From: Kineococcus radiotolerans SRS30216 = ATCC BAA-149
Lineage (GTDB): Bacteria > Actinomycetota > Actinomycetes > Actinomycetales > Kineococcaceae
Reading direction: 5' to 3'
DNA: 32,000 bases
Assembly: GCF_000017305.1 (NCBI RefSeq)
Contig: NC_009664.2
Location: forward strand, 3,660,001-3,692,000
Part shown: positions 1,848-15,480 of the stretch, in pieces
How the letters are laid out: the number at the start of each line of letters is the position of its first letter
How positions within the stretch are numbered: the stretch's first letter is position 1
Made by a program: the position numbers and the translations under genes
Notes under the pieces: model-generated
The model's database searches: none
Seen by the model: only the letters and a program-made list of their open reading frames with translations
What the model was told of the DNA's origin: nothing

Positions 1848-1996
1848 CCCCGGTCGTCCCCCGGTCCTCGCGCCGCCGCGGTCAGGGGCACCCCTGAGCG
1901 TCCCGGGGCGTTGACCGGGGTGATCCCCGACGTGAGGACGACGAGCGCGGCCGGTTCCTCCACCGAGGGGTGGATGCCCCCGACCCGGACCCTCGG

Positions 1997-2040
1997 TCAG
2001 GATCGGACGACCGCCCGTGGCGGACCTAGGATCGGCGACG
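1997..2040 (+). promoter_or_regulatory. Candidate promoter/operator upstream of telA
   Basis: The direct repeat AGGATCGG(A)CGAC occurs at 1998-2010 and 2027-2039. The second copy contains TAGGAT (2026-2031), which fits the actinobacterial -10 consensus TANNNT, about 60 nt upstream of the telA ATG. No convincing -35 is visible. Confidence 0.25.
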
Positions 2041-2092: not shown

Positions 2093-3355
2093 ATGTCGGA
2101 GTCGCTGGACCTGAGCAAGCCGCTGGACCCGCCGGCCGTGCCGGCCACCCCGCCTGCCCCGGACCTGCAGCTGACCCCGCCGGCCCCGGTGCCGGTGGTC
2201 GCCGACGAGCAGGCCGAGGGGATGATCCCCCTCGACGAGGCGACGCGGGCGGAGCTGCACCGCAAGGCGCAGGCCTTCGTCGCCGACCTCGCCGCGCAGG
2301 ACCCGCGCAGCCCCGCCTTCCAGAAGAAGGTCGACGACATCACGCGCATGGGGGAGCAGGAGGTCCGCTCCTCGGCGCAGGTCTCCAACCGCATGCTCGA
2401 GCGCCCGCAGTCCAGCCTGGCCGGGGCCAAGGGGCAGAAGGCCTCCGGGCCCGGGGCCGACGCGCAGGTCAAGGTCGCGAGCACCCTGCTGGAGCTGCGC
2501 CAGACCGTCACCGCCCTCGACCCCGGCCGCGCCGACCTCAAGGGCGTGCGGAAGATCCTCGGGATCATCCCCGCGGGCAACAAGATCCAGCGCTACTTCG
2601 AGCGCTACGCCGACGCCCAGTCCCAGCTCGACGCGATCATCAAGGCGCTGGCCAGCGGGCAGGACGAGCTGCGCAAGGACAACGCCTCCATCGAGTCCGA
2701 GAAGCAGAACCTCTGGACGACGATGGGCAAGCTCACCGAGTACTCCACGCTGGCCAAGGCCCTGGACGCGGCGACGGTGGCCAAGATCGACGAGCTGCGG
2801 GCGACGAACCCCCAGGCCGCGGAGGCCCTCACCGCCGACGCGCTGTTCCCGATCCGCCAGCGCCACCAGGACCTGCTGACCCAGCTCGCCGTCAGCGTGC
2901 AGGGCTACCTCGCGCTGGACCTGGTGCGCAAGAACAACATCGAGCTCATCAAGGGCGTCGACCGGGCGCAGACGACGACGGTGGCGGCCCTGCGGACCGC
3001 GGTGATCGTGGCGCAGGCGCTGGCCAACCAGAAGCTCGTGCTCGACCAGATCAACGCGCTGAACACCACGACGAACCAGATGATCCTGTCGACCTCGGAG
3101 ATGCTCAAGCAGCAGACCGGCCAGATCCACGAGCAGGCCTCCACGGCCACGGTGGACGTGGCCACGCTGCAGAAGGCCTTCGACAACGTCTTCGCGACGA
3201 TGGACGCGATCGACACGTTCAAGCAGCAGGCCGTGGTGAGCATGGCGAACACCGTCGACGCCCTCGAGGGGCAGGTGCACCGCTCGCGGTCCTACCTGGA
3301 GCGCGCGCGCAACGGCGAGCAGGGCGCGGGTCCCGCGCTGGAAGGTCCCCGGTGA
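2093..3355 (+). CDS. telA: Toxic anion resistance protein TelA family
   Basis: This is ORF 2048..3355, starting at the ATG at 2093 ([12 protein letters not shown]…). It is a long all-helical protein with the TelA-type layout (…[27 protein letters not shown]…[13 protein letters not shown]…[22 protein letters not shown]…[11 protein letters not shown]…). A Pro-rich N-terminus is common in actinobacterial TelA. Confidence 0.9.
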
Positions 3356-4272
3356 GCTCGGTGGCCTCCTCCCGCGCCGACCAGCGCCCCTCCCGGGCGC
3401 TGAGGCGGGCTGCCGCGGCCGAGGGGAGGGTCGTGCGGCGCGGCCCCGCGCAGGCCCCGCCGGAGCTCGTCTCGCGCCGGCTGCGCAGCCGCACCTGGCG
3501 GGCCGCGAACTCGTGGTGGCTGGCGATCCCGGCGCTGGGGCTGCCGTGGCTGGCGTTCCTCTACATGGGGTTGCGCGGGCGGCGGCCGCAGTGGGTGCTG
3601 GCCGCGCTCGGCTACCTCGTCGCGATGGGCGGGGCCGCCACCGGCCTCGGCCTCGGTCTGGGCCTGGCGACGGGCCACGAGCTGTTGTTCCTCGTGCTGG
3701 GTTCCCTGCTGGGCGCCGGCACCTGGGGATTGGGACTGGTGCACTCGATCATGGCGAACTCGACGTGGCTGCGGATCAAGGCGGCCTTCACGGGCGAACC
3801 CGCCCTGGAGGCCCCGACGACCCCGGCGGTGCCCCCGGCCCCCGCCGACCCGGTGAGCGGGCTGCAGGAGGCCCTGCGCGAGGTCGTGCGCACGGCCAAC
3901 CGCCACGGCGGCCGCCTGCCCGACGGGGCCGTGCCCGCGGTCCGCGAGGTCGAGGACGTGCTGCGGCCGCTGCTGGCCCACGTCGCCCGGCGCGGCGCGG
4001 AGGTCGAGGAGCTGCACAACCTCGAGGCCATCGTCACCGAGTACCTGCCCGGGGCGCTGGAGCACTACCTCGACCTGCCCCCCGACTACGCCGAGACCCA
4101 CCGGCTGCCGTCGGGGCTCACCCCGGCCGAGGAGCTCGTCAACCAGCTGCGGCTGCTGGTGGACGGGTCCCGGGACCTCCAGCGCGCCGTCCACGACCAC
4201 GACGCGCAGAAGCTGTCGGTCCAGGGCCGGTTCCTCGACGCGAAGTTCCGCCGCTCGGACCTGGACCTGTAG
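3352..4272 (+). CDS. XpaC-like membrane protein, paralog 1 (3 predicted TM helices plus a conserved C-terminal helical domain)
   Basis: This is the tail of ORF 2017..4272. GTG at 3352 overlaps the telA stop (GTGA). Predicted TM segments are WWLAIPALGLPWLAFLYMGL, WVLAALGYLVAMGGAATGLGLGLGLA and LLFLVLGSLLGAGTWGLGLV. The C-terminal domain (…YLPGALEHYLDLPPDYAETHR…TPAEELVNQLRLLV…GRFLDAKFRRSDLDL) is shared with the next two genes. The XpaC assignment (5-bromo-4-chloroindolyl phosphate hydrolysis family) rests on the known TelA-XpaC gene pairing and on architecture. Confidence 0.7.
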   Translation: MSSVASSRADQRPSRALRRAAAAEGRVVRRGPAQAPPELVSRRLRSRTWRAANSWWLAIPALGLPWLAFLYMGLRGRRPQWVLAALGYLVAMGGAATGLGLGLGLATGHELLFLVLGSLLGAGTWGLGLVHSIMANSTWLRIKAAFTGEPALEAPTTPAVPPAPADPVSGLQEALREVVRTANRHGGRLPDGAVPAVREVEDVLRPLLAHVARRGAEVEELHNLEAIVTEYLPGALEHYLDLPPDYAETHRLPSGLTPAEELVNQLRLLVDGSRDLQRAVHDHDAQKLSVQGRFLDAKFRRSDLDL

Positions 4273-4281
4273 GAGGACGCG

Positions 4282-5178
4282 GTGGGTGTCGATCTCGGCA
4301 AGGGCGACGGGACGCGGGGCCCGCGGACGCGCGAGCCGCTGCCGGAGGTGACTCCCGCGGTGGCTCCGGAGGTGGCTCCGGAGGTGGCTCCGGAGCGGCG
4401 CCCCGGCGCGACGGTGGCGCGGACGACGCCCCCACCGGCGCCGTACCAGCGGCGGGAGCCGTCGCTCCCGGCGGCGGACGAGGCGCGGGGGCTGAACCCG
4501 CACGCGATGGGGGTGTTCACCACGGCGTGGACGGCGGGGTGGATCGTCGCCTTCGCCACCCACCTCTGGTGGCTGGGCCTGATCATGCTCCTGATGCAGG
4601 GCGCGGTGTTCGGCTACGTCAAGCAGCAGGGCCTGCCGTGGGCCGGGCCCGGGCGCGCGGCCCGCCGCGCCCGGCGGCTGGAGCGCCACCGCGAGCGGGC
4701 GCGCCGCCGCGGCGCGCTCGCCCCGCCCCCGCCCGCGGTCCCGGAGCTGCCCGACCCCGTCACCACCGCCGAGCGCCGGCTGGCCGCGGTGCTCGTCACG
4801 GCCGAGACCTCCGGGGGCCGGATGGACCCCGAGGCGGTCGAGCTGGTCCGCGAGGTCGACCGGCTGCTGCGCCCGCTGCTGGCCCAGGTGCGGACCCGCG
4901 ACGCGGACCCGCAGGTCCGCCACGACCTGGAGACCCTGGCCGGGGAGCACCTGCCGCGCACCGTCGAGGACTACCTCGTCCTGCCCGACGACTACGCCCG
5001 CACCCACCGCACGGCGGCGGGCACGACCCCGGCCGACGAGCTGCGGGCCCAGCTGCAGCTGCTCGTCGAGGGCTGCCGGCAGGTGCGCGACTCCCTCCTC
5101 AGCCGCGACGTGGACCGTCAGCAGCAGCAGAGCCGGTTCCTCGAGGCGAAGTTCCGGCGCTCCGACCTGGACCTGTGA
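4282..5178 (+). CDS. XpaC-like membrane protein, paralog 2
   Basis: This is ORF 4282..5178. The GTG start is preceded by AGGAGG 5 nt upstream. It has two TM helices (VFTTAWTAGWIVAFATHLWWLGLIMLLMQGAVFGYV), an Arg-rich stretch, and a C-terminal domain ending SRFLEAKFRRSDLDL. Confidence 0.8.
   Translation: MGVDLGKGDGTRGPRTREPLPEVTPAVAPEVAPEVAPERRPGATVARTTPPPAPYQRREPSLPAADEARGLNPHAMGVFTTAWTAGWIVAFATHLWWLGLIMLLMQGAVFGYVKQQGLPWAGPGRAARRARRLERHRERARRRGALAPPPPAVPELPDPVTTAERRLAAVLVTAETSGGRMDPEAVELVREVDRLLRPLLAQVRTRDADPQVRHDLETLAGEHLPRTVEDYLVLPDDYARTHRTAAGTTPADELRAQLQLLVEGCRQVRDSLLSRDVDRQQQQSRFLEAKFRRSDLDL
4359..4394 (+). repeat. Perfect 12-nt tandem repeat x3 (GTGGCTCCGGAG), in frame, encoding (V)APE repeats
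   Basis: The identical unit sits at 4359-4370, 4371-4382 and 4383-4394 in the N-terminal disordered region of paralog 2 (…TPAVAPEVAPEVAPE…). Confidence 0.95.
4912..4972 (+). repeat. 61-nt block near-identical (60/61) to 5787-5847 in the next paralog
   Basis: CAGGTCCGCCACGACCTGGAGACCCTGGC[C/G]GGGGAGCACCTGCCGCGCACCGTCGAGGACT appears in both genes and is identical at synonymous sites. The flanking codons diverge. Confidence 0.95.
5106..5155 (+). repeat. 50-nt block identical (50/50) to 5981-6030 in the next paralog
   Basis: CGACGTGGACCGTCAGCAGCAGCAGAGCCGGTTCCTCGAGGCGAAGTTCC occurs in both genes and contains a (CAG)4 run. Confidence 0.95.
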
Positions 5179-5186
5179 GGACGGCC

Positions 5187-6053
5187 GTGGGGATCGAACT
5201 GCGCAAGGGCGACGACGACCGGGACCGGCCCCGTCGGGTGGTCCTGCCCGAGCGCGAGGTCGAGGTCATCGGCCCGAACGACCTCGAACCGCGCCTGGGG
5301 GCGAACCTCCCGGTGCTCGGGTGGGTCTCCGACCCCGTCTTCCAGCTCGTCCGGTTCGTCGGCCTGGGCGGCTGGATCGTCCTCTACGCCGCCCTCGGGC
5401 CGCTGGGCCTGTGGTGGGTGGGGTTCATCGCGATGTGGGCCTGGATCGGGGCGAACGTGGCCTACGAGAACGAGGCCCGGCGGCGGCGCCGGTTGCGGCG
5501 GCACTACCGGCGCGCGATCAAGTACGGGACGCTCGCCCCGGTGCCGGTCCTGCTGCGCCCGGAGGAGGCCGCGCCGGTGGTCCGGGAGCAGCGGCTCGCG
5601 GCGGCGGGGGCGCCCGCCGTCAGCGCGCCGCAGGTGACCGCCGCCGAGAAGGCCCTGGTCGCCACGGTCCGCCGGGTCGACACCGCCGTGGACCGCTTCG
5701 AGCGCACCGACGTCGTCCTCGTCCACGAGGTCGCCGACCTGCTCGGCCCGCTGCTGCTGCGCATCGCCGAGCGGGGCGGGGACCCCCAGGTCCGCCACGA
5801 CCTGGAGACCCTGGCGGGGGAGCACCTGCCGCGCACCGTCGAGGACTTCCTGGCCCTGCCGCCCGACGTCGCCCGCGGCAGCCGCAACGCCGCGGGGTCC
5901 ACCCCGGCGGAGGAGCTGCGCAACCAGCTGCACCTCATGGCCGACGGCTGCCGGCAGCTGCGGGAGGCGGTGCTCTCGGCCGACGTGGACCGTCAGCAGC
6001 AGCAGAGCCGGTTCCTCGAGGCGAAGTTCCGCCGCGGGGACCTGGACCTGTGA
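5187..6053 (+). CDS. XpaC-like membrane protein, paralog 3
   Basis: This is the tail of ORF 3513..6053. The GTG at 5187 is preceded by GAGGA 5 nt upstream. The protein reads VGIELRKGDDD…, then two TM helices (FVGLGGWIVLYAALGPLGLWWVGFIAMWAWIGANV), then ARRRRRLRRHYRR. The C-terminal domain is about 60-70% identical by eye to paralog 2 and ends SRFLEAKFRRGDLDL. Confidence 0.8.
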   Translation: MGIELRKGDDDRDRPRRVVLPEREVEVIGPNDLEPRLGANLPVLGWVSDPVFQLVRFVGLGGWIVLYAALGPLGLWWVGFIAMWAWIGANVAYENEARRRRRLRRHYRRAIKYGTLAPVPVLLRPEEAAPVVREQRLAAAGAPAVSAPQVTAAEKALVATVRRVDTAVDRFERTDVVLVHEVADLLGPLLLRIAERGGDPQVRHDLETLAGEHLPRTVEDFLALPPDVARGSRNAAGSTPAEELRNQLHLMADGCRQLREAVLSADVDRQQQQSRFLEAKFRRGDLDL

Positions 6054-6092
6054 CCCTCGCGGTGCCCGGTCCGGTGCGGTAGGAAGGGGACC

Positions 6093-6884
6093 GTGACCCT
6101 CGACGTGCAGCTCGTCGGTTCCACGACCCAGATGGCCGTGGTGACCCTGCGTCCCGGGCAGACGCTGTACTGCGAGGCCGGGAAGTTCCTCTTCTCCTCC
6201 GGCGACGTGGTCATGGAGACCAAGCTCACCGCGCCCGGCGGCGGCGAGGGGGGCGGCCTCGGCGGGCTGCTGCGCGGCGCGGCCCAGGCCGGCAAGCGGG
6301 TGCTGGCGGGGGAGTCCTTCGCCTTCCAGCACTTCCACACCCCCGGCGGCGACGGGCTGCTGGGGCTGGCCGGCGTCCTGCCCGGCGAGATGCGCCACCT
6401 GGAGCTGGACGGCTCGACGACGTGGTTCGCCGAGAAGGACGCCTTCGTGGCGGCCGAGGCGGGGGTGCACTTCGACATCGCCTTCTCCGGGGTGGGACAG
6501 GGCCTCATGGGCGGGGAGGGGTTCATCCTCGAGAGGTTCACCGGCCGCGGGTCGCTGCTCATCGCCGGCGCGGGCGACTTCATCGACATCAACCCCGCCG
6601 ACTACGGCGGCACCCTGCGGGTCGACACCGGCTGCGTCGTCGCCTGGGACGACCGCATCACCTACGGCGTCGAGACCGTGGGCCGGCTGAACCGGCAGGG
6701 GATCGTCAGCGCCGTCCTCGGCGGTGAGGGGCTGACCCTGGCGACGCTGCGCGGCGACGGGCGCGTCATCCTGCAGTCGGTCACCATCGAGGCCTTCGCC
6801 AAGGCGCTGGTCAAGAACAGCGCCAAGCCCGACCAGCAGGGCCTCGGGGCCCTGGGCGGGTTGTTCGGGGGCTCCCGCGGCTAG
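6093..6884 (+). CDS. AIM24 family protein (DUF124/TIGR00266-type)
   Basis: This is ORF 6093..6884 with a GTG start after AGGAAGGGGA. Blocks typical of AIM24 proteins include …[18 protein letters not shown]…, [46 protein letters not shown] and [20 protein letters not shown]. Confidence 0.85.
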
Positions 6885-6979
6885 CGGGACCTCCCCGGGC
6901 ACCAACCGGGCCCGGTGATCGTTGGGCCCACCGCAAGCGGTCACACCACCGAACGCAGCGACGAAACGGAGCGAACACC

Positions 6980-7555
6980 ATGGGCGTCAGCCTCAGCAAG
7001 GGCGGCAACGTCTCCCTCACCAAGGAAGCGCCGGGGATGACCAAGGCCGTCATCGGCCTGGGCTGGGACGCGAACTCCTTCACCGGCTCGGAGTTCGACC
7101 TCGACGCGCAGGCCATCATGGTCGGCGCGAACGGCAAGGTCCCCAGTGACGGCTACTTCGTCTTCTTCAACCAGCTGAAGTCCCCCGAGGGCTCCGTGGA
7201 GCACACCGGCGACAACCGCACCGGTGAGGGCGACGGCGACGACGAGAAGATCAACGTCGACCTCAGCCTCGTGCCCGCCGAGATCGAGAAGATCGTCTTC
7301 ACCGTCGCCATCTACGACGCCGACACCCGCAAGCAGTCCTTCGGGCAGGTGCGCAACGGCTTCATCCGCGTGGTCAACAGCGAGGGCGGCACCGAGGTCG
7401 CCCGCTACGACCTCACAGAGGACGCCTCCACCGAGACCGCGATGGTCTTCGGCGAGCTGTACCGCAACGGGTCGGACTGGAAGTTCCGCGCCGTCGGCCA
7501 GGGCTACGCCGACGGTCTGCGCGGCATCGCGACCGACTTCGGCGTCAGCGTCTGA
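6980..7555 (+). CDS. terD: TerD family stress protein (Ca2+-binding TerD domain)
   Basis: This is ORF 6980..7555 with an ATG start. The sequence is canonical: [15 protein letters not shown]…IGLGWD…FDLDAQAIM…[21 protein letters not shown]…[11 protein letters not shown]…FGQV…[10 protein letters not shown]. Confidence 0.95.
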
Positions 7556-7566
7556 CGCACTCCACC

Positions 7567-7596
7567 GCGCACCGTCCCCGGCCGGGGACGGTGCGC
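7567..7596 (+). terminator. Perfect GC-rich hairpin downstream of terD (intrinsic-terminator-like, no U tract)
   Basis: GCGCACCGTCCCC-GGCC-GGGGACGGTGCGC forms a 13-bp perfect stem 12 nt after the terD stop. The missing U tract is common in high-GC actinobacteria but lowers confidence. Confidence 0.5.
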
Positions 7597-7676
7597 GTTC
7601 GCACGTCGTCCGCACGGCGGTGAGTAGGGTTCGAGGTCCGGCCCGCACGGGCTCCGCATGAACAGGAAGCTGACAG

Positions 7677-8819
7677 GTGATCCTCAAGACCTACCGCTGG
7701 TCCTTCGTCGTGACGGCCCTGGGGCTGGTGCTCGCCGCCTGGTACGGGCTGTCGGCCCACCTGGGCATCGGGCAGGCGATCGCCCTCGTCCTGATCCTCT
7801 CGATCCTCGAGATCAGCCTCTCGTTCGACAACGCCGTGGTGAACGCGACCATCCTGGAACGGATGAGCGACTTCTGGCGGAAGATCTTCCTGTCCGTCGG
7901 CATCATCATCGCCGTCTTCGGCATGCGGCTGGTCTTCCCCATCGTGCTGGTCAGCGTGACCGCCGGGCTGGGGCCGATCGAGGTCATCCGCCTCGCCCTC
8001 GAGGGCGGTGACCCGGAGACCCCGGGCACGTACGGCTACGAGCTGCACGAGGCCCACCCCACCATCGCCTCCTTCGGCGGCATGTTCCTGCTCATGCTCT
8101 TCCTCAACTTCATCTTCGGGGAGAAGGAGCACCACTGGCTCGGGCCGATCGAGCGCGCCCTGGAGAAGGTCGGCAAGCTCGACTACGTCCAGGTCATCGT
8201 GGCCGGCGCCGTGCTCCTCGTGGTGGCCGAGACCTTCGCCACCGAGCACGGCCGGACCGTCCTGGCCTCGGGTCTGGCGGGCATCGTGACCTACCTGCTC
8301 GTCAACGGCCTCGGCGAGCTGTTCAACGTCGAGGACCACGTCGAGCACGAGGACCCCGCCACCACCTCGGCCGGCACCACGGCCTCCGGCGTCAACGGCC
8401 CCAGCGGGGCGGCCCGGGCCACCGGCAAGGCGGCGTTCTTCCTCTTCCTGTACCTCGAGGTCCTCGACGCCTCGTTCTCCTTCGACGGGGTCATCGGCGC
8501 CTTCGCCATCACCTCCGACCCGGTGATCATCGCCATCGGCCTCGGCGTCGGCGCCATGTACATCCGGTCGATGACCGTGCACCTGGTGGAGGAGGGCACC
8601 CTCGCCCAGTACCCCTACCTGGAGAACGGCGCCCTGTGGGCCATCGGCGCCCTCGCGGTGATCCTGCTGCTGAGCATCGAGGTGGAGATCCCCGAGGTCG
8701 TCACCGGCCTCATCGGGCTGGCCTTCATCGTGGCCTCGCTCATCAGCTCCATCCGGTACAACCGGGCCCACCCCGAGGAAGCCCACGTCGAGCAGCACCA
8801 CGCGGCGCAGCCGGGCTGA
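7677..8819 (+). CDS. TerC-superfamily integral membrane protein (DUF475-like)
   Basis: This is ORF 7677..8819 with a GTG start. It is polytopic, with two copies of the TerC-type motif (LEISLSFDNAVVNA and LEVLDASFSFDGVIGAF). The N-terminus MILKTYRWSFVVTALGL is typical of actinobacterial DUF475 proteins found next to terD. Confidence 0.88.
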   Translation: MILKTYRWSFVVTALGLVLAAWYGLSAHLGIGQAIALVLILSILEISLSFDNAVVNATILERMSDFWRKIFLSVGIIIAVFGMRLVFPIVLVSVTAGLGPIEVIRLALEGGDPETPGTYGYELHEAHPTIASFGGMFLLMLFLNFIFGEKEHHWLGPIERALEKVGKLDYVQVIVAGAVLLVVAETFATEHGRTVLASGLAGIVTYLLVNGLGELFNVEDHVEHEDPATTSAGTTASGVNGPSGAARATGKAAFFLFLYLEVLDASFSFDGVIGAFAITSDPVIIAIGLGVGAMYIRSMTVHLVEEGTLAQYPYLENGALWAIGALAVILLLSIEVEIPEVVTGLIGLAFIVASLISSIRYNRAHPEEAHVEQHHAAQPG

Positions 8820-8829
8820 TCCGCCGAGC

Positions 8830-8859
8830 GGGACGGAGCGGGGGCGGGGGGTCGGCGGG
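8830..8859 (+). other. Potential G-quadruplex motif in the TerC-like/TerD-like spacer
   Basis: GGG-ACGGAGC-GGGGG-C-GGGGGG-TCGGC-GGG has four G-runs of at least 3 with loops of 7 nt or less. Such motifs are frequent in genomes this GC-rich. Confidence 0.3.
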
Positions 8860-8878
8860 CTGAGCAGGAGGGCGAGCG

Positions 8879-9718
8879 GTGAGCGGCGGGACGAACGCGC
8901 GGCCGGCGGAGGAGGTCCACAACTTCCTCGGCCGGCCCGGGCCGCGGCGCAGCCGGCGCACGCTGGCCGACCACCTGCAGCCCCCCCGCCCCCGCCCGGT
9001 GGTCACCACCCCGGCCCCGCCCGCTCCGCCGCCCGCGGCGCGGGTCGCGCCCCCCGCCCCGGCGCGGGTCGCGGCCCCCGCCCCGGTCGTCGCCGTCGGG
9101 CAGGCCCGGGCCAGCGAGCGCCGGGTCGTCCTCGACGACGAGCGCCCCACCGCCACGATCCCCGCGGCCGAGCGGGCCTCGGGGACCCTGCGCATCACCC
9201 TGCGCTGGGAGCGGCAGGTCACCGCCGCCGGTCTGCACCGTTCCACCGACGTCCACCTCGGGTGCCTCTGGGAGACCCGGGACCGTCACGCGGGTGCGCT
9301 GCAGTCCCTGGGTGACCTGCTCGCCGCCCCCGGCTTCGGCGCCCGCCAGGTCCTGCGGCTGGGACCGCGCAGCGAGCAGGACGGCGAGGAGGTCCTCGCC
9401 GACGCCGCCCACCTGAGCCTGATGCGCCGGATGGTCCTGTACGTCTACGCCGTCGGGCCCAACCCCCCGGACTACCGGCGGCTGGCCCCGCACCTGACCC
9501 TCGCCCGCCGCGGCGGGGGCACCCTGCAGATGTGGGCGGGCGAGCCGCCCCCGGGGGCGCGCACCTGCGTCATCGCCTCCGTGCACGACGTCGGCGGCGA
9601 CCTCGTCGTCCGCCGCGAGGACGAGTTCCTCCCCGGGACCGCGCGCGACGTCGCGCTCGCGTACGGGTTCGACGACCTCGACTGGAACTCCGAGGGCACC
9701 GTCCCGCGTCCTTCCTGA
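8879..9718 (+). CDS. Degenerate TerD-like domain protein with a Pro/Ala-rich N-terminal extension
   Basis: This is ORF 8879..9718 with a GTG start. Residues from about 95 to 279 follow the TerD fold pattern (…LRITLRWER…DVHLGCLWE…VLRLGPRSEQDGEEVLADAAHL…MVLYVYAV…CVIASVHDVGGDLVVRREDEFL…ALAYGF). The [13 protein letters not shown] calcium motif is replaced by GPRSEQDGEE. Confidence 0.7.
   Translation: MSGGTNARPAEEVHNFLGRPGPRRSRRTLADHLQPPRPRPVVTTPAPPAPPPAARVAPPAPARVAAPAPVVAVGQARASERRVVLDDERPTATIPAAERASGTLRITLRWERQVTAAGLHRSTDVHLGCLWETRDRHAGALQSLGDLLAAPGFGARQVLRLGPRSEQDGEEVLADAAHLSLMRRMVLYVYAVGPNPPDYRRLAPHLTLARRGGGTLQMWAGEPPPGARTCVIASVHDVGGDLVVRREDEFLPGTARDVALAYGFDDLDWNSEGTVPRPS
9037..9084 (+). repeat. 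24-nt tandem repeat x2 (23/24 identical), in frame
   Basis: GGCGCGGGTCGCG[C/G]CCCCCGCCCC sits at 9037-9060 and 9061-9084 and encodes ARVAPPAP/ARVAAPAP in the disordered N-terminus of the TerD-like protein. Confidence 0.9.
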
Positions 9719-9752
9719 GCACACCCCATCCACCACGAGAGAGGGGCCCACC

Positions 9753-10331
9753 GTGGCCGTCAGTCTGAACAAGGGCCAGAAGCTGTCGCTGGAGAAGTCC
9801 GGCGGGGGCAGCCTCACCCGCGTCTTCATGGGCCTGGGCTGGGACGCCGTGGCCAAGGGCCTGTTCCGCAAGAAGGCCGTCGACATCGACCTCGACGCGA
9901 GCGTGCTGCTCTTCGACGCGCAGCGCCGGCTGGTCGACGAGGTGTGGTTCCAGCAGCTGCGCAGCAAGGACGGGTCCGTCGTCCACAGCGGCGACAACCT
10001 CACCGGCGAGGGGGAGGGCGACGACGAGGTCGTCCACATCGACCTGCCCGCGGTGCCGGCCCAGGTGCAGACCCTCGTCTTCACGGTGTCCAGCTTCACC
10101 GGCCAGGACTTCTCCCAGGTCCAGAACGCCGTCTGCCGCCTCGTCGACGCCGCCCAGCCGCAGCCGGTCGAGCTCGCCCGCTACGAGCTGTCCGACGCCG
10201 GACCGCACACCGCGCAGATCATGGCCAAGCTCACCCGCGAGGGCAGCGGCTGGGCCATGACGGCCATCGGCGCACCCGCCCAGGGCCGCCACATCCGCGA
10301 CCTCCGCGACGCCGTCGCCGCCCACGTCTGA
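9753..10331 (+). CDS. terD: TerD family stress protein (second canonical copy)
   Basis: This is ORF 9753..10331 with a GTG start after GAGAGAGGGG. The sequence reads MAVSLNKGQKLSLEK…GLGWD…VDIDLDASVLLFD…HSGDNLTGEGEGDDEVVHIDL…LVFTVSSF…WAMTAIG. Confidence 0.93.
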   Translation: MAVSLNKGQKLSLEKSGGGSLTRVFMGLGWDAVAKGLFRKKAVDIDLDASVLLFDAQRRLVDEVWFQQLRSKDGSVVHSGDNLTGEGEGDDEVVHIDLPAVPAQVQTLVFTVSSFTGQDFSQVQNAVCRLVDAAQPQPVELARYELSDAGPHTAQIMAKLTREGSGWAMTAIGAPAQGRHIRDLRDAVAAHV

Positions 10332-10346
10332 GCCGCTGAGCCCAGC

Positions 10347-11564
10347 GTGCGGCACTTCAGCACCCTCGACGCGGAGCGGGAGCGGGACCTCTTCCTCCAC
10401 CCCCCGCGACCGGTCGACGTCACCGCCGGGCGCGACGAGCTCGCCGTCGCGCTCGGCGCCACGCTGTACTGCCCCGCGACCCGCGAGCGCCTGGCGGGGG
10501 ACCTGCTGCGGCTGGCCCGCCGCGGGGTCCTCTCGGCCGTGGCGTGCCTGGAGGACTCCGTCCCCGACCACCGCGTCGCCGAGGCCGAGGAGATCCTCGT
10601 CCGCGAGCTCGCCGGCCTGGCCCGCACCCCCGAGTGGCGCGACGGGGCGCCCCTCATGCTCTTCGTGCGGGCCCGGACCCCGCAGCAGCTGCTGCGCGTC
10701 GTCGAGCGCAGCGGCGTCGGGCTGGACTGCCTGACGGGGTTCGTCGTCCCCAAGTTCGGGGGCGGCGGGCAGCCCTCCCCGGACGAGTGGCTGGAGGCGG
10801 TCAGCACCGCCTCCGAGCGGGCGGGGCGGCGGATGTGGGCCATGCCGGTCCTGGAGAGCCGCGACGTCGCGCACCTGGAGACCCGCCGCGAGGCGCTGTT
10901 CGCCATCCGCGACGTGCTCGACGCCCACCGCGAGGTCGTCCTCGCCGTGCGCACCGGGGCCACCGACCTCTCCGCCGCCTACGGGCTGCGCCGGCCCCGG
11001 GGGGCCACCGTGTGGGACGTCCGGGTCGTGGCCGACGTCCTCGGCGACGTCATCAACGTCCTGGGCCGCGCCGACGGCAGCGGCTACCCCATCACCGCCC
11101 CCGTGTGGGAGCACTTCTCCTCCGGGGAACGGGTCTTCCGCACCTCCCTGGCGGCCCGGCCGTTCGCGGAGTCCGGGTCGGTGGGCCTGCGCGAGCAGCT
11201 CATCACCGACGACCTCGACGGCCTCGTGCGCGAGCTCGTCCTCGACCGCGTCAACGGGTTGCAGGGCAAGACCGTCATCCACCCCTCCCACGTCGCCGTC
11301 GTCCACGCCACGTCGGTGGTCACGCACGAGGACTTCTGCGACGCCTCCGACGTCGTGGCCCAGCACGGGGGCGGGGCGATGGCCTCGACCTACCGGAACA
11401 AGATGAACGAGGCCGGCCCCCACCGGGTCTGGGCCGAGCGCGTCCTGGCCCGCGCCCGCGCCTTCGGAGTGGCCCGCGAGGACACCACCTACGTCCACCT
11501 GCTCCAGGCGCAGGACGACGCCTGGCGCGCCTTCACCCGCTCACCGGAAGGGGCCCGCGCGTGA
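10347..11564 (+). CDS. HpcH/HpaI aldolase / citrate-lyase-beta-like TIM-barrel C-C lyase (Ter-associated type)
   Basis: This is ORF 10347..11564 with a GTG start. Blocks typical of the Ter-linked HpcH/CitE-like family include GATLYCPATR, ACLEDSV, FVVPKF, AMPVLES, RTGATDLSAAYGLRR and GKTVIHPSHV. It lies directly downstream of terD and upstream of the PRTases, as in the published Ter neighbourhood. Confidence 0.8.
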   Translation: MRHFSTLDAERERDLFLHPPRPVDVTAGRDELAVALGATLYCPATRERLAGDLLRLARRGVLSAVACLEDSVPDHRVAEAEEILVRELAGLARTPEWRDGAPLMLFVRARTPQQLLRVVERSGVGLDCLTGFVVPKFGGGGQPSPDEWLEAVSTASERAGRRMWAMPVLESRDVAHLETRREALFAIRDVLDAHREVVLAVRTGATDLSAAYGLRRPRGATVWDVRVVADVLGDVINVLGRADGSGYPITAPVWEHFSSGERVFRTSLAARPFAESGSVGLREQLITDDLDGLVRELVLDRVNGLQGKTVIHPSHVAVVHATSVVTHEDFCDASDVVAQHGGGAMASTYRNKMNEAGPHRVWAERVLARARAFGVAREDTTYVHLLQAQDDAWRAFTRSPEGARA

Positions 11565-12943
11565 ACCGCGTCGTCCCGCACGCCCCCGCCCGCACCCGGT
11601 GGGTCGCCGAGCGGCTCGGCGTGCACCTGGACGGGCCCGCCGGCGCCGACGGCCTCACCGTCCACGACCTGCTCGGCCTCGCCCTGCGGCGCAACCCCCG
11701 GCGCGCGCACCTGCTGGTCAGCGAGGTCCTCGGCAAGCACGTGCCCACCGACCCGCGGCTGGTGCGGGCGGCCGGGGCGCGCCTGGGCGGTCTCGTCGCC
11801 GACGTCCTCGGGGTGCCCGACGCCCCCGGGCCCGACGCCGGCACCTGGCGGGCGGCGCTGGCCGGTGACGAGCTCGCCACCGCCGCGGTGGCCGCCGGCG
11901 TGCAGCGCGCCCCGGCCCGCCCCGACGCCCTCGTCGTCGGCTACGCCGAGACCGCCACCGGGCTCGGGCAGACCGTCGCCGACGCCCTCGGCTGCGCCGG
12001 GCTGCACTCCACCCGCCGCGCGGTGCCCGGCGCCCTCGACTACGCCGGTTTCGAGGAGGAGCACTCCCACGCCACCGGGCACCGGCTGCTGCCGCGCGAC
12101 CCCGCCGTCCTCGCCGCCCTCGCCGACCCGACCGCCCCGGTCGTCCTCGTCGACGACGAGCTCTCCACGGGACGCACCGTCGCGAACACCCTGCGGGCGC
12201 TGCACGCCCGCTCCCCGCACCGGCACTACGTGGTGGCCGGTCTGGTCGACGTGCGCGCCGAGGCCGACCGGGCCCGCCTCGACGGGCTCGGCGCGGAGCT
12301 GGGGGCCCGCGTGGACGTGGTCAGCCTGGCGCGCGGCGTCGTGGACCTGCCCCCCGACGTGCTCGCCCGCGGGGCGGACCTCGTCGCGGGGGTGGCTCCG
12401 GTCGTCCCCGCGGCGGGTGCTCCCGCCGACGCGGTGCCGGTGCGGGTGGACTGGCCGAGCGGGGTCCCCACCACCGCCCGCTTCGGCACCGCGCCCGCCC
12501 ACGCGGAGCTGCTCGCCGGCGCCGACCTCGTGCGGCACCTGCTGCCGGAGGTGCGCACCGACGCCGAGGTCCTCGTCCTGGCCTCCGAGGAGCTCCTGCA
12601 CGCCCCGCTGGCCGTGGCCTGCCAGCTCGCCGCCCGCCACCCCGGGCGGGTGCGGTTCTCCTCCACGACGCGCTCGCCGGTGCTGGCCGTCGACGACCCC
12701 GGGTACGCGGTGCGCAGCTCGGTGGCCTTCACCTCCCACGACCCGGCCGTGGACGGCCCGGGGACCCGCTACGCCCACAACGCGGCCCGCGAGGGGGGCT
12801 GGGACGCGATCGTCCTCGTCGTCGACTCCGCCTCCGCGCCCACCGCGCTGCACGCCCCGGACGGCGTCCTCGCGGCGCTGGCCCCGCTCGCGTCGCGGCT
12901 GCTGCTCGTCACCCTGCCCGCCGACACCTGGAGCCCCCGGTGA
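11561..12943 (+). CDS. Phosphoribosyltransferase (Ter-associated PRTase_2-type with a C-terminal TRSP-like domain)
   Basis: This is the tail of ORF 10544..12943. GTG at 11561 overlaps the upstream stop (GTGA). The PRPP-binding loop is VVLVDDELSTGRT. The N-terminal HLLVSEVLGKHVP and GYAETATGLG blocks are typical of this family. Confidence 0.82.
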   Translation: MNRVVPHAPARTRWVAERLGVHLDGPAGADGLTVHDLLGLALRRNPRRAHLLVSEVLGKHVPTDPRLVRAAGARLGGLVADVLGVPDAPGPDAGTWRAALAGDELATAAVAAGVQRAPARPDALVVGYAETATGLGQTVADALGCAGLHSTRRAVPGALDYAGFEEEHSHATGHRLLPRDPAVLAALADPTAPVVLVDDELSTGRTVANTLRALHARSPHRHYVVAGLVDVRAEADRARLDGLGAELGARVDVVSLARGVVDLPPDVLARGADLVAGVAPVVPAAGAPADAVPVRVDWPSGVPTTARFGTAPAHAELLAGADLVRHLLPEVRTDAEVLVLASEELLHAPLAVACQLAARHPGRVRFSSTTRSPVLAVDDPGYAVRSSVAFTSHDPAVDGPGTRYAHNAAREGGWDAIVLVVDSASAPTALHAPDGVLAALAPLASRLLLVTLPADTWSPR

Positions 12944-14097
12944 CCTCGTCCACGGAACTGCCCACGCCCCTGTCGGGCCCGCGGTTCTCCTCCTACCTGC
13001 CCGACGAGGTGAGCTGGCTGCTCAGCGACCTGTCCGGGGTGGAGCTGGAGGCCCCGGCCGAGGAGCGCGAGGAGGCCATCCAGAGCGGCGGGGCGCACTA
13101 CGCGGAGTCGCTGCCGGTGGAGTACCAGCCGAGCGCGGAGTACCAGCGGCTGTTCGCCGACGCCCTGGACCGCACGGCCCGCCGGGTGGCCCTCGGGGTG
13201 GGGGTGGTGGCCGAGCTGCTGCGGGCCGAGCGGGGGGAGGAGCTCCTGCTCGCGTCCCTGGCCCGGGCCGGGACCCCGGTGGGGATCCTGCTGCGCCGCT
13301 GGGGGCTGCGCGCCGGGCTGCACTGGCCGCACGTCGCGGTGTCCATCGTGCGCGGGCGCGGCATCGACGAGGTCGCGCTGCGCTGGATCGCCGCCCACCA
13401 CGACCCCTCCGCGGTCGTCTTCGTCGACGGCTGGACCGGCAAGGGGGCGATCGTGCGGGAGCTGTCCGCCGCGCTGGCCCGCTTCCCCGGCTTCAGCGAC
13501 GACCTCGCCGTGCTGGCCGACCCCGGCCACTGCGTGCGCACCTTCGGCACCCGCGAGGACTACCTCATCCCCTCGGCGTGCCTGAACTCCACGGTGTCGG
13601 GGCTGGTGAGCCGGACGGTCCTGAACGAGCGGCTGCTGGCCCCGGGCCGGTTCCACGGGGCGAAGTTCTACGCCGACCTCGCCCCCGTCGACGCGTCGAA
13701 CCGGTTCCTGGACGTGGTGAGCTCCTGGTTCGACGACGTCGCCCCGGAGGTCCCGGCGGCGGTGGCGGTGGTGCGCGCGCAGGACCGCACGGCCACCTTC
13801 ACCGGCTGGGCCGAGGTCGAGCGGGTCAGCGAGCACTACGACATCGGCGACGTGAACCTCGTCAAACCCGGGGTGGGGGAGACGACCCGGGTGCTGCTGC
13901 GCCGGGTCCCGTGGCGGGTCCTGGTGCGCCCGGAGGCGGAGCTGCGCCACCCCGACGACCTCGCCCACGTGCGGTTGCTGGCCGCGCAGCGCGGGGTGGT
14001 CGTGGAGGAGGTGCCGGGGCTGTCCTACTCCGCGATCGGGTTGATCCACCCGCGATTCACCCGGGGGGCGACCGGCGCCGACGGGCGGGCGGTGTGA
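12940..14097 (+). CDS. StiP-type protein (annotated in databases as cysteine protease StiP; PRTase_1 fold, probable C-terminal PELOTA-like domain)
   Basis: This is ORF 12940..14097; its GTG overlaps the upstream stop. N-terminal blocks SSYLPDEVSWLL, EEREEAIQSGGAHYAESLP, YQRLF, LARAGTPVGILL and VFVDGWTGKGAI match my memory of StiP-family proteins encoded in Ter clusters. Confidence 0.75.
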   Translation: MTSSTELPTPLSGPRFSSYLPDEVSWLLSDLSGVELEAPAEEREEAIQSGGAHYAESLPVEYQPSAEYQRLFADALDRTARRVALGVGVVAELLRAERGEELLLASLARAGTPVGILLRRWGLRAGLHWPHVAVSIVRGRGIDEVALRWIAAHHDPSAVVFVDGWTGKGAIVRELSAALARFPGFSDDLAVLADPGHCVRTFGTREDYLIPSACLNSTVSGLVSRTVLNERLLAPGRFHGAKFYADLAPVDASNRFLDVVSSWFDDVAPEVPAAVAVVRAQDRTATFTGWAEVERVSEHYDIGDVNLVKPGVGETTRVLLRRVPWRVLVRPEAELRHPDDLAHVRLLAAQRGVVVEEVPGLSYSAIGLIHPRFTRGATGADGRAV

Positions 14098-14921
14098 GCG
14101 GGGGGAACGGCCTGCTGGCCGCCAGCGACCTCGACCAGACGCTGGTGTTCTCCGCCCGCTCGGCCGGGGTGGACGTGGCCGGGCTCGTCGAGGTCGAGGA
14201 GTACGAGGGGCGGGTCATCTCCTACGTGACCCCCGCGGCGTGGGCGCTGCTCGGGGACCTGGTGGCGTCGGGGCGCTTCCTGCCCGTCACCACGCGGACC
14301 CCGGAGCAGTACGCGCGGATCCGCTGGCCGGGAGCTGCGCCGCGGTACGCGGTGTGCGCCAACGGCGGGGTGCTGCTGGTCGACGGCGCCCCGGACGCGG
14401 CGTGGGCGCAGGTGGTGCGGGACCGGTTGTCCGGCTGCGCCCCCCTGGCGCAGGTGCACGCGGAGCTGGCGCGGCTGGCCGGGGAGCTCGTCACCGCGGT
14501 CCCGGGCTCGGAGGACCCCGCGGTGCGCAGCGTCCCGGGGTTGTTCGGCTACCTCGTCCTGCGCGAGGGGCAGCGCCCGGAGCTGGAGGGGACCCGCCTC
14601 GGGGACCTCACCGTGCGGCTGGACGGCTGGGGCTACGCGGTGTCCCTGCAGGGCCGCAAGCTCTACGCCGTCCCGCGCCCGCTGACGAAGTCGGCGGCCG
14701 TCGCGGAGGTGGTGTCCCGTCGCGGCGCCACGGGCTTCGTCTCCGCCGGGGACTCGCTGCTCGACGTGGACCTGCTCGTCGCCGCCCGCGCGGCGCGCCG
14801 CCCCCGCCACGGGGAGCTGCTGCGGGCCGGCTGGGAGCACCCCGGGGTGGAGCTCACCGCCGCGACCGGCGCGGCGGCGGGGGAGGAGATCGCGCGCTGG
14901 CTGGCCGGCGCCGTCGGCTGA
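14094..14921 (+). CDS. HAD-superfamily phosphatase (Ter-associated)
   Basis: This is the tail of ORF 11865..14921. GTG at 14094 overlaps the upstream stop. HAD motif I is ASDLDQTLVF (DxDxT), motif II is PVTTRT, and motif IV-like is SAGDSLLDVDLL. Confidence 0.8.
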   Translation: MSGGNGLLAASDLDQTLVFSARSAGVDVAGLVEVEEYEGRVISYVTPAAWALLGDLVASGRFLPVTTRTPEQYARIRWPGAAPRYAVCANGGVLLVDGAPDAAWAQVVRDRLSGCAPLAQVHAELARLAGELVTAVPGSEDPAVRSVPGLFGYLVLREGQRPELEGTRLGDLTVRLDGWGYAVSLQGRKLYAVPRPLTKSAAVAEVVSRRGATGFVSAGDSLLDVDLLVAARAARRPRHGELLRAGWEHPGVELTAATGAAAGEEIARWLAGAVG

Positions 14922-14928
14922 CGCGCCC

Positions 14929-15480
14929 CTACCGGCCCGCCCGCGCGGGGTCCTCGCGCGCGCGGTGGCGCAGGGCGGCGAGCGCCCCCGCCGCGGCGAG
15001 CAGCCACGTCGCGGCCCGGGCCGCCACGGCCACCGGGTCGCCCGCCGGCCCCGGTGGCAGGACGAGCGCCTCCAGCGCCGCCCCGAGCGGGACGAGGAGC
15101 CGCGCGAGCAGGCCGAGGGGGCCGGGGTCGCGCACCCGGGACCCGAGGAACCCCAGCACCGGGCAGACCAGCAGGCTCGCCGCCCACCAGGTCGCGTCCC
15201 CGCGCAGCGTGGCCGCCGGCGGCACCGCGCGCAGCAGCGCGTCGGCGAGGGCGAACGCGAGCAGGGCCGCGCTCGTCGCCAGCCACCCGGCCGCGGCCGC
15301 GCGCCGCGGCGTCCGCACGAGCGCACCGGTGAGGACGGCGAGCCCCGCCCAGGCCCACCCCGCGTTGAGCAGGGAACCGCCGAACCGGGCCCCCGGGGAG
15401 GAGGAGAGGTCGAGCGCGGCGTTCAGGGCGCCGAAGCCCGTGGCGAGCGCGAGGACGACCGGCGGTCGGGAGGAGGGCAC
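14929..15480 (-). CDS. Hypothetical polytopic membrane protein
   Basis: This is ORF 14929..15480. It has 5-6 hydrophobic Ala/Leu/Gly-rich segments and a strong G/C preference at codon position 3. I recognise no family. The GTG start directly abuts GGAGG, so the SD spacing is poor and the start is uncertain. Confidence 0.5.
   Translation of the reverse strand: MPSSRPPVVLALATGFGALNAALDLSSSPGARFGGSLLNAGWAWAGLAVLTGALVRTPRRAAAAGWLATSAALLAFALADALLRAVPPAATLRGDATWWAASLLVCPVLGFLGSRVRDPGPLGLLARLLVPLGAALEALVLPPGPAGDPVAVAARAATWLLAAAGALAALRHRAREDPARAGR

Follow-up and report, generated by a model that had tools for sequence, protein, structure and literature searches.

A chromosomal Ter stress-response gene cluster of Kineococcus radiotolerans is a local variant of a known system

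Do thirteen genes crowded onto one strand of the Kineococcus radiotolerans SRS30216 chromosome form a new kind of stress or defence locus, or a version of one already described? The genes lie in a 32,000-nucleotide stretch of that chromosome (hereafter the window), in which a first-pass annotation, made from the letters alone, had described a Ter-type cluster of unusual composition. Our analysis supports the second answer. The thirteen genes are a Ter stress-response gene cluster, fixed in the chromosome and inherited vertically, and they represent a local variant of a known system; gene arrays compared across actinobacteria show their composition to be recurrent rather than unusual. With moderate confidence, we read it as a membrane-associated metal/envelope stress system coupled to a phosphoribosyl-derived metabolite.

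At about 75% G+C, the window yields uninformative raw lists of open reading frames (ORFs), and genes were called from G+C content at third codon positions (GC3). This analysis found thirteen consecutive + strand genes that exactly fill positions 2093-14921, from a first ATG at 2093 to a last stop at 14921, as previously claimed. They correspond to thirteen consecutive GenBank proteins, numbered ABS04780 (g1) down to ABS04768 (g13); g1, g2, g4, g8 and g13 were looked up by exact sequence, and all sat at the expected positions in the accession run. The junctions had been called tiny or overlapping, which describes five that overlap by 4 nt (g1/g2, g3/g4, g10/g11, g11/g12 and g12/g13) and five others with gaps of 9, 15, 34, 39 and 59 nt, but not the two longest gaps, which flank g6 (95 nt before it and 121 nt after). 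A Pfam scan gave matches for 8 of the 13 proteins (g1, g5, g6, g7, g9, g10, g11 and g12), confirming the TelA, AIM24, two TerD, DUF475/TerC, lyase, PRTase_2-TRSP and StiP-PELOTA calls, and for g2, g3, g4, g8 and g13 neither Pfam nor NCBIfam gave a useful match with the threshold relaxed to E<=10. The thirteen genes are as follows (PRTase, phosphoribosyltransferase; TM, transmembrane).

2093..3355, + strand: g1, TelA of the toxic anion resistance family, soluble, 420 aa, ABS04780 (Pfam PF05816, 6e-92)
3352..4272, + strand: g2, TelA-partner membrane protein, paralogue 1, ABS04779 (4-nt overlap with g1)
4282..5178, + strand: g3, TelA-partner membrane protein, paralogue 2 (TM hairpin and Arg-rich linker, then the C-terminal domain shared with g2 and g4)
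5175..6053, + strand: g4, TelA-partner membrane protein, paralogue 3, Krad_3313 / ABS04777 (4-nt overlap with g3)
3844-4269, 4729-5175 and 5622-6050, + strand: C-terminal domains of partners g2, g3 and g4, a shared family domain
6093..6884, + strand: g5, AIM24-family protein, soluble (Pfam PF01987, 2e-55; TIGR00266)
6980..7555, + strand: g6, TerD/TerE-type TerD protein with intact Ca2+-binding motif (Pfam TerD, 3e-85)
7677..8819, + strand: g7, DUF475 / TerC-superfamily polytopic membrane protein (DUF475, 1e-124; TerC, 5e-20)
8879..9718, + strand: g8, stand-alone TerA C-terminal-domain homologue, ABS04773 (hhalign, AlphaFold2 model)
9753..10331, + strand: g9, TerZ-type TerD protein with intact GDNLTGEGEGDDE motif (Pfam TerD, 3e-46)
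10347..11564, + strand: g10, TIM-barrel C-C bond lyase, HpcH/CitE-like, of a Ter-associated family (Pfam PF15617, 4e-111)
11561..12943, + strand: g11, PRTase_2 + TRSP phosphoribosyltransferase (Pfam, 3e-61 and 7e-29)
12940..14097, + strand: g12, StiP (formerly PRTase_1) + PELOTA_1 protein (Pfam, 3e-101 and 4e-32)
14094..14921, + strand: g13, HAD-superfamily phosphatase of the Ter biosynthetic module, ABS04768 (profile against PDB)

Three hallmarks of a Ter system are found here. The biosynthetic module (PRTase_2-TRSP, StiP/PRTase_1-PELOTA, TIM-barrel C-C lyase and HAD) is encoded by g10-g13, and g7 provides an integral membrane protein of the TerC superfamily. There are several TerD paralogues, among which g6 and g9 carry the GDN(R/L)TGEGxGDDE motif and g8 has the fold without the motif. 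The Pfam and profile matches thus bear out the view that TelA, AIM24, TerD, TerC-superfamily and biosynthetic modules are joined in one Ter-type cluster.

Within the TerD group, g6 is 62-63% identical to Klebsiella TerD and TerE. For Klebsiella TerZ (48%), with which it has indels in common, and for the Pseudomonas TerD beside the biosynthetic module (53%), g9 is the best match. The membrane protein g7 has about nine hydrophobic segments by hydropathy. For g8, the label 'degenerate TerD' is right about the fold; the family is that of the TerA C-terminal domain. A database search with g8 found orthologues across Kineococcus and two-domain TerD proteins of ~430 aa in Streptomyces (E 6e-13 to 1e-3), with the second domain of which g8 aligns; the Streptomyces two-domain gene itself stands alone, without Ter neighbours. 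In hhalign comparisons the g8 family matched this second domain at 99.8% (E 9e-29), the second domain matched canonical TerD at 84% (E 7e-6), and the g8 profile matched, over its whole length, residues 183-383 of Klebsiella TerA at 99.8% (E 2.5e-28). Compared directly with canonical TerD by hhalign, g8 gave an insignificant 0.1-1% probability, and its homology to TerD is visible only via the second-domain intermediate (two-domain TerD/TerA) and a structure model. That AlphaFold2 model (predicted local distance difference test score, pLDDT, 89.5; predicted template modelling score 0.89) had only two Foldseek matches in the PDB at E<=1e-3, Klebsiella TerD 2KXT and 9A6R chain B, which we take to be B. 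subtilis YceC/SCP2, a TerD-family protein. At the N-terminus of g8, ~80 Pro/Ala-rich residues stand in place of the TerA N-terminal TerD-like domain, and LGPRSEQDGEE replaces the GDNxTGEGxGDDE Ca2+ motif of g6 and g9. On these alignments and the predicted structure, g8 is a stand-alone TerA C-terminal domain with a TerD fold and no metal motif.

The enzymes g10-g13 look active. In g11, the phosphoribosyl pyrophosphate (PRPP) loop VLVDDExxTG is invariant, as are the motifs FxExHSHA and SxTTRSP, both among actinobacteria and in the homologues on Klebsiella and Pseudomonas ter plasmids. A 7-sequence cross-phylum alignment of g12 (actinobacteria and gammaproteobacteria) contains an invariant PRTase-like loop, FVDGWTGKGAI, and no invariant Cys, an absence that sits uneasily with the name 'cysteine protease StiP', which goes back to an Acinetobacter study (as cited in PMC11994780). 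Motifs I-IV of the HAD superfamily (DLDxT, TTR, K and GDxxxD) are invariant in 9 orthologues of g13, with invariant residues D12, D14, T16, T66/T67, K189/K199 and G219-D220...D224. Sequence searches of the PDB with g10, g11 and g12 found no solved homologue. The profile of the 9 g13 orthologues matched 6D3V/6CJ0 over its full length (E 4e-16), and the earlier HAD call stands. PRTase_2-TRSP and StiP-PELOTA are fused into single proteins of 850-920 aa in three comparison loci (L022 16842-19412, L031 16940-19495 and L033 19156-end), and by analogy with these fusions in other actinobacteria g11 and g12 may act physically together.

The closest solved relative of g13, 6CJ0/6D3V, is the 'trehalose phosphatase' of P. 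aeruginosa. It is encoded on P. aeruginosa plasmid CP109686 (L020 9001-9711), where it stands between PRTase and StiP within a ter biosynthetic module that has the order ATP-grasp, PRTase, 'trehalose phosphatase', StiP, lyase, HAD-IB, TerD ... TerB, TerC, TerD, TerD; Klebsiella ter plasmids have the same enzyme order. Homologues of this 'trehalose phosphatase' occur in 2,559 PLSDB plasmid records, mostly from Klebsiella, E. coli, Enterobacter and Salmonella, and the ten listed enterobacterial homologues are annotated 'hypothetical protein'. Given a PRTase, a lyase and a phosphatase that resemble early steps of nucleoside-antibiotic synthesis, and an actinobacterial host, the genes could be read as directing secondary metabolism towards a nucleoside antibiotic that is secreted, Ter and TelA serving as self-resistance. 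We regard this as extremely unlikely: no exporter, pathway regulator or further tailoring enzyme is found in or beside the cluster, and the same four enzymes occur from Bacillus to Klebsiella plasmids, unlike strain-specific antibiotic clusters.

At the other end of the cluster, the g1 match spans positions 2-332 of the 332-position TelA profile. Its ATG at 2093 is backed by 420/420 full-length orthologue alignments and a conserved ribosome-binding site (RBS), and a PDB sequence search with g1 found no solved homologue. The three genes that follow encode paralogues with an N-terminal hydrophobic hairpin, an Arg-rich linker and a conserved C-terminal domain of ~120 aa that ends in KFRRSDLDL, as seen by hydropathy and alignment; g2 has 4 hydrophobic segments, and its C-terminal domain is helical. 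All 35 invariant columns of the partner alignment fall in the C-terminal domain. Only two partner paralogues occur in more distant Kineococcus loci, from which g3 is missing.

The first-pass annotation had called these three genes XpaC-like, a label for which the backing is legacy database names and the analogy of a membrane-hairpin protein beside TelA, and which does not survive profile searches. The layout is indeed of the XpaC type, with a membrane hairpin and a helical C-terminal domain encoded beside a TelA gene, and the B. subtilis xpaC-yaaN pair has the same arrangement, in which a TelA homologue stands beside a small protein made up of a membrane hairpin and a helical domain in the cytoplasm. 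JGI/IMG and one UniRef entry name members of the g1 cluster 'YaaN', and the UniRef legacy name for g2 is '5-bromo-4-chloroindolyl phosphate hydrolysis protein', with the precomputed domain PF27171. Nevertheless g2-g4 have no match to the Halogen_Hydrol/XpaC profile (PF10112) at E<=10, assuming that PF10112 is in the Pfam-A copy used, and 0/10 diverse members of the partner family match it at E<=0.01; the likeness lies in legacy names and gene neighbourhood. A TelA neighbour on a mislabelled 5.5-Mb Bacillus 'plasmid' was considered and set aside, being a DUF3974 protein, and no XpaC was found there.

An exhaustive profile search gave 1,191 representative partner proteins at E<=1e-3. Many members are 160-215 aa long, with or without the membrane hairpin, one is fused to a PspC domain, and PGAP names the relatives 'hypothetical'. 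The C-terminal domain is modelled as a helical bundle (pLDDT 92.8), and a fold search with it gave unspecific helical-bundle matches, none at E<=1e-3 in the PDB. The partner gene is adjacent to or overlaps TelA in Actinomycetota (metagenome-assembled genomes, MAGs, of Actinomycetales and Trujillonella), and in Variovorax and Nonomuraea the two genes are no more than ~2.5 kb apart. According to the annotation table, in Sphaerotilus it comes after TelA with a vWA gene between them; the signs of such a TelA-vWA-partner set are weaker in Variovorax, Nonomuraea and Deinococcus. In this group the C-terminal partner domain was recovered by tblastn at E 1e-8 to 1e-25. The Sphaerotilus triad thus has the same C-terminal domain family near TelA, whereas Kineococcus lacks the intervening vWA and has three partner paralogues. 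The Deinococcus partner overlaps a vWA-annotated gene, and a further family member lies at L029 12199-12513. By profile, g2-g4 belong to a large unnamed TelA-partner family, and the XpaC label is unsupported.

The AIM24-family protein g5 scores exactly at the cut-off of TIGR00266, 96.6 bits. Its solved relatives are 1YOX (PA3696; match 1e-33) and 1PG6, both function-unassigned proteins. Orthologues with ~70% identity are widespread in Actinomycetota, and AIM24 stands beside Ter genes in 3/6 sampled non-Kineococcus contexts.

How far does this assembly extend beyond K. radiotolerans? We compared ~30 loci in all, among them 18 of Kineococcus type, comprising 17 named Kineococcus and one MAG labelled Janthinobacterium lividum. 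The full gene order is present in the 10 Kineococcus-type loci long enough to show it, with three partner paralogues in 5 and two in 5, and shorter contigs carry compatible partial arrays. An M24 peptidase gene lies upstream in 14/14 Kineococcus loci that cover that flank, which agrees with the earlier judgement that the cluster is chromosomally fixed. In the window, too, the upstream neighbour is a divergent M24 peptidase. Downstream come an alpha/beta hydrolase, a pyridoxal phosphate (PLP) enzyme, an alpha-amylase-family enzyme, a ROK regulator and panB, and further on nadE, glnA, glnE, a luciferase-like oxidoreductase and a second glnA. These flanks are of housekeeping type, and, as previously noted, no tRNA, transposase or integrase is found at the cluster borders.

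Outside the genus, all nine families occur in same-strand arrays of Trujillonella endophytica (Geodermatophilaceae, L031) and of a metagenomic actinobacterial contig (L033). The Trujillonella array has 15 genes, with TerC, TerD, DUF475, a g8-like gene, TerD-vWA, AIM24, TerD and TerD in its first half and TelA, partner, TerD, a g8-like gene, lyase, a PRTase_2-TRSP-StiP-PELOTA fusion and HAD in its second. A third locus, L035, has most of the nine families on both strands: AIM24 is divergent and lies beside TerD, DUF475, a g8-sized ORF, lyase, ATPgrasp_Ter, PRTase_2-TRSP, StiP-PELOTA and a HAD-sized ORF. These loci differ from Kineococcus in gene order, in having one short partner of 160-180 aa against three long paralogues, in the fused PRTase_2-TRSP-StiP-PELOTA, and in an extra TerC, TerD-vWA (TerF-like) or ATPgrasp_Ter. 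Subsets of the families are found in Actinomadura, Actinomycetales MAGs and one Curtobacterium plasmid. Actinomadura has only TerD-TerD-DUF475-TerD-lyase-PRTase-StiP-HAD, without TelA or AIM24, and L025 has TelA-partner-TerD-g8 without the enzymes.

Because the nine families are found together in the Trujillonella and L033 arrays, and a related Bacillus cluster has been described, the composition is not unusual, contrary to what had been claimed, and the order is genus-wide. Among the loci compared, Kineococcus stands out by its gene order, by having the partner in two or three copies, and by lacking TerB, vWA and ATP-grasp. Modules that separate elsewhere, as in L025, in Actinomadura and where AIM24 is alone, might instead mean that independent operons (TelA with its partners; AIM24; TerD/TerC; biosynthesis) are juxtaposed by chance and have no joint function, with the 95- and 121-nt gaps and a conserved hairpin between g6 and g7 as internal boundaries. 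Set against this, Bacillus and three or more unrelated actinobacterial contexts have these families re-assembled in other orders, a pattern that classically signals functional linkage, and five junctions are 4-nt overlaps; we judge chance juxtaposition very unlikely.

Comparison with two described systems places the cluster further. The plasmid ter of Klebsiella, E. coli and Pseudomonas consists of terZABCDEF, a divergent ATP-grasp/PRTase/HAD/StiP/lyase block and terWXY. It has counterparts of g6 (TerD/E), g9 (TerZ), g8 (the TerA C-domain) and g7 (TerC superfamily), and its PRTase_2, StiP-PELOTA, lyase and HAD are homologous to g10-g13, with conserved catalytic loops; in both systems TerZ/TerA-type genes adjoin the biosynthetic block. 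Relative to it, Kineococcus lacks TerB, the TerA N-terminal half, ATP-grasp, TerW and the TerY/vWA-kinase-phosphatase set, and has a DUF475-subtype membrane protein as well as TelA, the three partners and AIM24, on a chromosome, on one strand and in another gene order. The Bacillus 'cluster 2' contains terD x3, terC, lyase, PRTase, StiP, HAD, yceG and yceH/TelA (PMC11994780). Like B. subtilis yceCDEFGH, it shares with Kineococcus the lyase-PRTase-StiP-HAD order without ATP-grasp, and TerD paralogues, a TerC-type protein and TelA in one array. However, TelA stands at the 3' end with YceG in Bacillus and at the 5' end with membrane-hairpin partners in Kineococcus, and the Bacillus cluster has neither AIM24 nor a stand-alone TerA-C, and its TerB is antisense.

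The first-pass annotation had also listed TerB, TerA, TerY/vWA and ATP-grasp as missing. TerB had no Pfam match in the 13 cluster proteins or the 13 flanking ORFs scanned, an ATP-grasp ligase had none in the cluster or the scanned flanks, and no TerY-P triad (vWA TerY, Ser/Thr kinase and PP2C) was found in the scanned window ORFs; TerA, by contrast, is partly represented, by the C-domain homologue g8. ATP-grasp is present in the relatives L035 (ATPgrasp_Ter), L020 and L021.

Could the locus be an anti-phage defence island, in which Ter senses infection and a nucleoside-like product either stops the phage from replicating or sets off abortive infection? Resistance to phage and colicin has been connected with classical ter, and defence is among the roles in the Ter model (PMC7824862). 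Ter modules are found on plasmids and, according to PMC7824862, in jumbo phages. The DUF475-TerD-TerD-TelA set of the Curtobacterium plasmid, which stands amid phage-like nucleotide-metabolism genes, could be taken the same way. In Kineococcus, neither PADLOC nor the genomic setting supports the phage-defence role that had been proposed. A scan of 10/13 proteins (g3, g9 and g13 left out) against PADLOC-DB v2 gave no family match, the sole hit being a weak one of the TelA coiled coil to JetC (1.4e-4). The flanks are housekeeping genes (M24 peptidase, panB, nadE, glnA and glnE) without integrase, transposase or tRNA; the site is the same genus-wide, unlike typical variable defence islands; and there is no nuclease, TerY/kinase/PP2C triad or DNA-processing module. 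We consider a defence island unlikely. In Curtobacterium itself (plasmid D40, NZ_CP126274, L028 1-19000), the four genes lie amid genes for PRPP synthase, nicotinate PRTase and NADAR and near NUDIX, dTMP kinase, Thg1 and TnpB genes, a region that looks like a phage- or plasmid-borne NAD/nucleotide-metabolism island.

The DNA around g1 and g6 bears on how the cluster is expressed, and three features were located there.

1959..1974, strand not assigned: perfect palindrome TCCACC-N4-GGTGGA (TCCACCGAGGGGTGGA), candidate operator upstream of g1
2027..2032, + strand: TAGGAT, candidate -10 element (TAnnnT type), ~60 nt 5' of the g1 ATG
7566..7597, + strand: 14-bp GC-rich perfect hairpin, starting 10 nt past the g6 stop

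The palindrome core is invariant in 11/11 aligned Kineococcus upstream regions, the candidate -10 sits within a CCTA(G/C)GAT block (CCTAGGAT; 2025-2032) that is invariant in the same 11 loci, and the RBS and the ATG at 2093 are conserved across them as well. The palindrome and the -10 block are probably operator and promoter element for some regulator, a gene for which was not found within the cluster. Since the palindrome is present as a single exact copy in the window, no regulon can be defined. The longest ORF for the divergent M24 peptidase (732-2075, - strand, 447 aa) overlaps the g1 start region, and M24 peptidase orthologues align over only ~280-346 residues; the true start of this gene is probably further downstream in its own reading direction, which would give a divergent promoter region of ~200-300 bp.

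The 121-nt spacer between g6 and g7 folds with a minimum free energy of -62.4 kcal/mol (z-score -2.26). A stem of 13-18 bp occurs at the same position in 11/11 Kineococcus loci checked, with diverged sequence; a conserved TGAGA(A/G)GGT block comes after it, and then an RBS. The hairpin is likely a partial terminator or an RNA-stabilising element. Because it is conserved after g6, a single operon is doubtful, and there are probably two transcription units, g1-g6 and g7-g13; alternatively, attenuated read-through would raise TerD over the downstream genes. A scan for sigma-70 consensus promoters and terminators gave nothing meaningful in 75% GC DNA, and an Rfam scan found no riboswitch or other element, including upstream of g7.

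What might these parts do together? In the Ter model of Anantharaman, Iyer and Aravind (2012), as summarized in PMC7824862, PRTases and HAD enzymes build a derivative of a nucleoside or nucleotide, TerB and TerD are ligand binders, TerC acts in the membrane, and TelA and vWA form sub-membrane structures. From the gene structure, family membership, catalytic and metal motifs, synteny and family co-occurrence described above, we infer the following contacts, chemistry and physiological role for Kineococcus. A first unit (g1-g6) would start at the conserved promoter/operator region at 1959-2032 and end at the strong hairpin. TelA, the three partners and AIM24 would act at the inner membrane face, the cytoplasmic helical bundles of the partners most likely tethering soluble TelA to the membrane. 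The TerD protein g6, the TerZ-like g9 and the TerA-C g8, together with DUF475 g7 as a divalent-metal membrane protein, would form a metal-sensing or transport complex. The PRTase-type enzymes g11 and g12 would ribosylate a base-like acceptor at the expense of PRPP, the TIM-barrel lyase g10 would make or trim a carbon side chain, and the HAD phosphatase g13 would remove a sugar phosphate to leave a nucleoside- or glycoside-like small molecule. This metabolite may be the signal or effector that couples the modules under chemical, metal or envelope stress.

The membrane and metal-binding parts could also be read on their own, as divalent-metal (Mn2+/Ca2+/Zn2+) homeostasis or exoprotein metalation centred on a TerC-like transporter. 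TerD proteins would then buffer Ca2+, and the enzymes and TelA would be accessory or unrelated. The full Ca2+ motif in g6 and g9 and the strong DUF475/TerC match of g7 fit this, and Klebsiella terC is reported to contribute to zinc resistance (PMC12054061). Such a role would leave unexplained why the four enzymes, TelA, partners and AIM24 accompany the TerD/TerC genes across taxonomic orders and phyla, and the Rfam scan gave no Mn riboswitch or other element ahead of g7; we think it improbable.

Several observations weigh against the coupled membrane and metabolite system that we favor. TerB, which the 2012 abstract of Anantharaman, Iyer and Aravind is said to describe as connecting the TerD-TerC complex with the biosynthetic module, is absent, as is ATP-grasp. 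The one characterised homologue of g13, the enzyme behind 6CJ0, reportedly hydrolysed trehalose-6-phosphate specifically in vitro (the 2018 FASEB J work of Cross et al.), an activity that does not fit a simple nucleotide substrate. In the other 3/6 sampled genomes AIM24 lies away from Ter genes, so it may act independently, in a role of its own. The evidence for the operon split is an RNA fold, to which consensus scans added no promoter or terminator. Finally, our literature search found no paper on Kineococcus ter genes.

A more elaborate version of the same system deserves mention as a speculation to which we give a small chance. Here the cluster would work as a self-contained machine that protects the membrane: AIM24, TelA and the partners would form a sub-membrane assembly, gated by Ca2+-bound TerD/TerZ and the metal-free TerA-C acting on a DUF475 channel, and switched by a glycoside that is phosphoribosyl-derived and not a canonical nucleoside, with the g13 HAD enzyme as the last step of its synthesis. 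If this were true, the Ter metabolite would be approachable through a four-enzyme, ATP-grasp-free pathway whose terminal enzyme is structurally characterized.

Two further ORFs of the window were noted. A convergent 183-aa ORF directly downstream of the cluster (14929-15480, - strand) has coding-like GC3, no Pfam match and no tblastn match in other Kineococcus loci; it may be species-specific or no gene. Another ORF (29983-30870, - strand), with a match to NAD-glycohydrolase-translocation / F5/8 type C domains (1.7e-9), has genes for a beta-helix protein and a glutamine synthetase as its neighbours; it has no relation to the Ter cluster.

Ter is linked to tellurite, phage, colicin and host-colonisation phenotypes, and it is widespread, with more than 2,500 PLSDB plasmid records. 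The Kineococcus locus leaves the overall picture of the Ter system unchanged. It corrects annotations, with g8 as a TerA-C protein, g9 as TerZ-type and g2-g4 as an unnamed TelA-partner family, and it makes AIM24, a recurrent Ter neighbour in actinobacteria, a candidate Ter component. The crystallised P. aeruginosa 'trehalose phosphatase', a g13 homologue in a plasmid ter module, could help to identify the metabolite. Single-stranded in its gene arrangement, chromosomal and without TerB, ATP-grasp or TerY, the locus offers a compact target with a minimal four-enzyme pathway.

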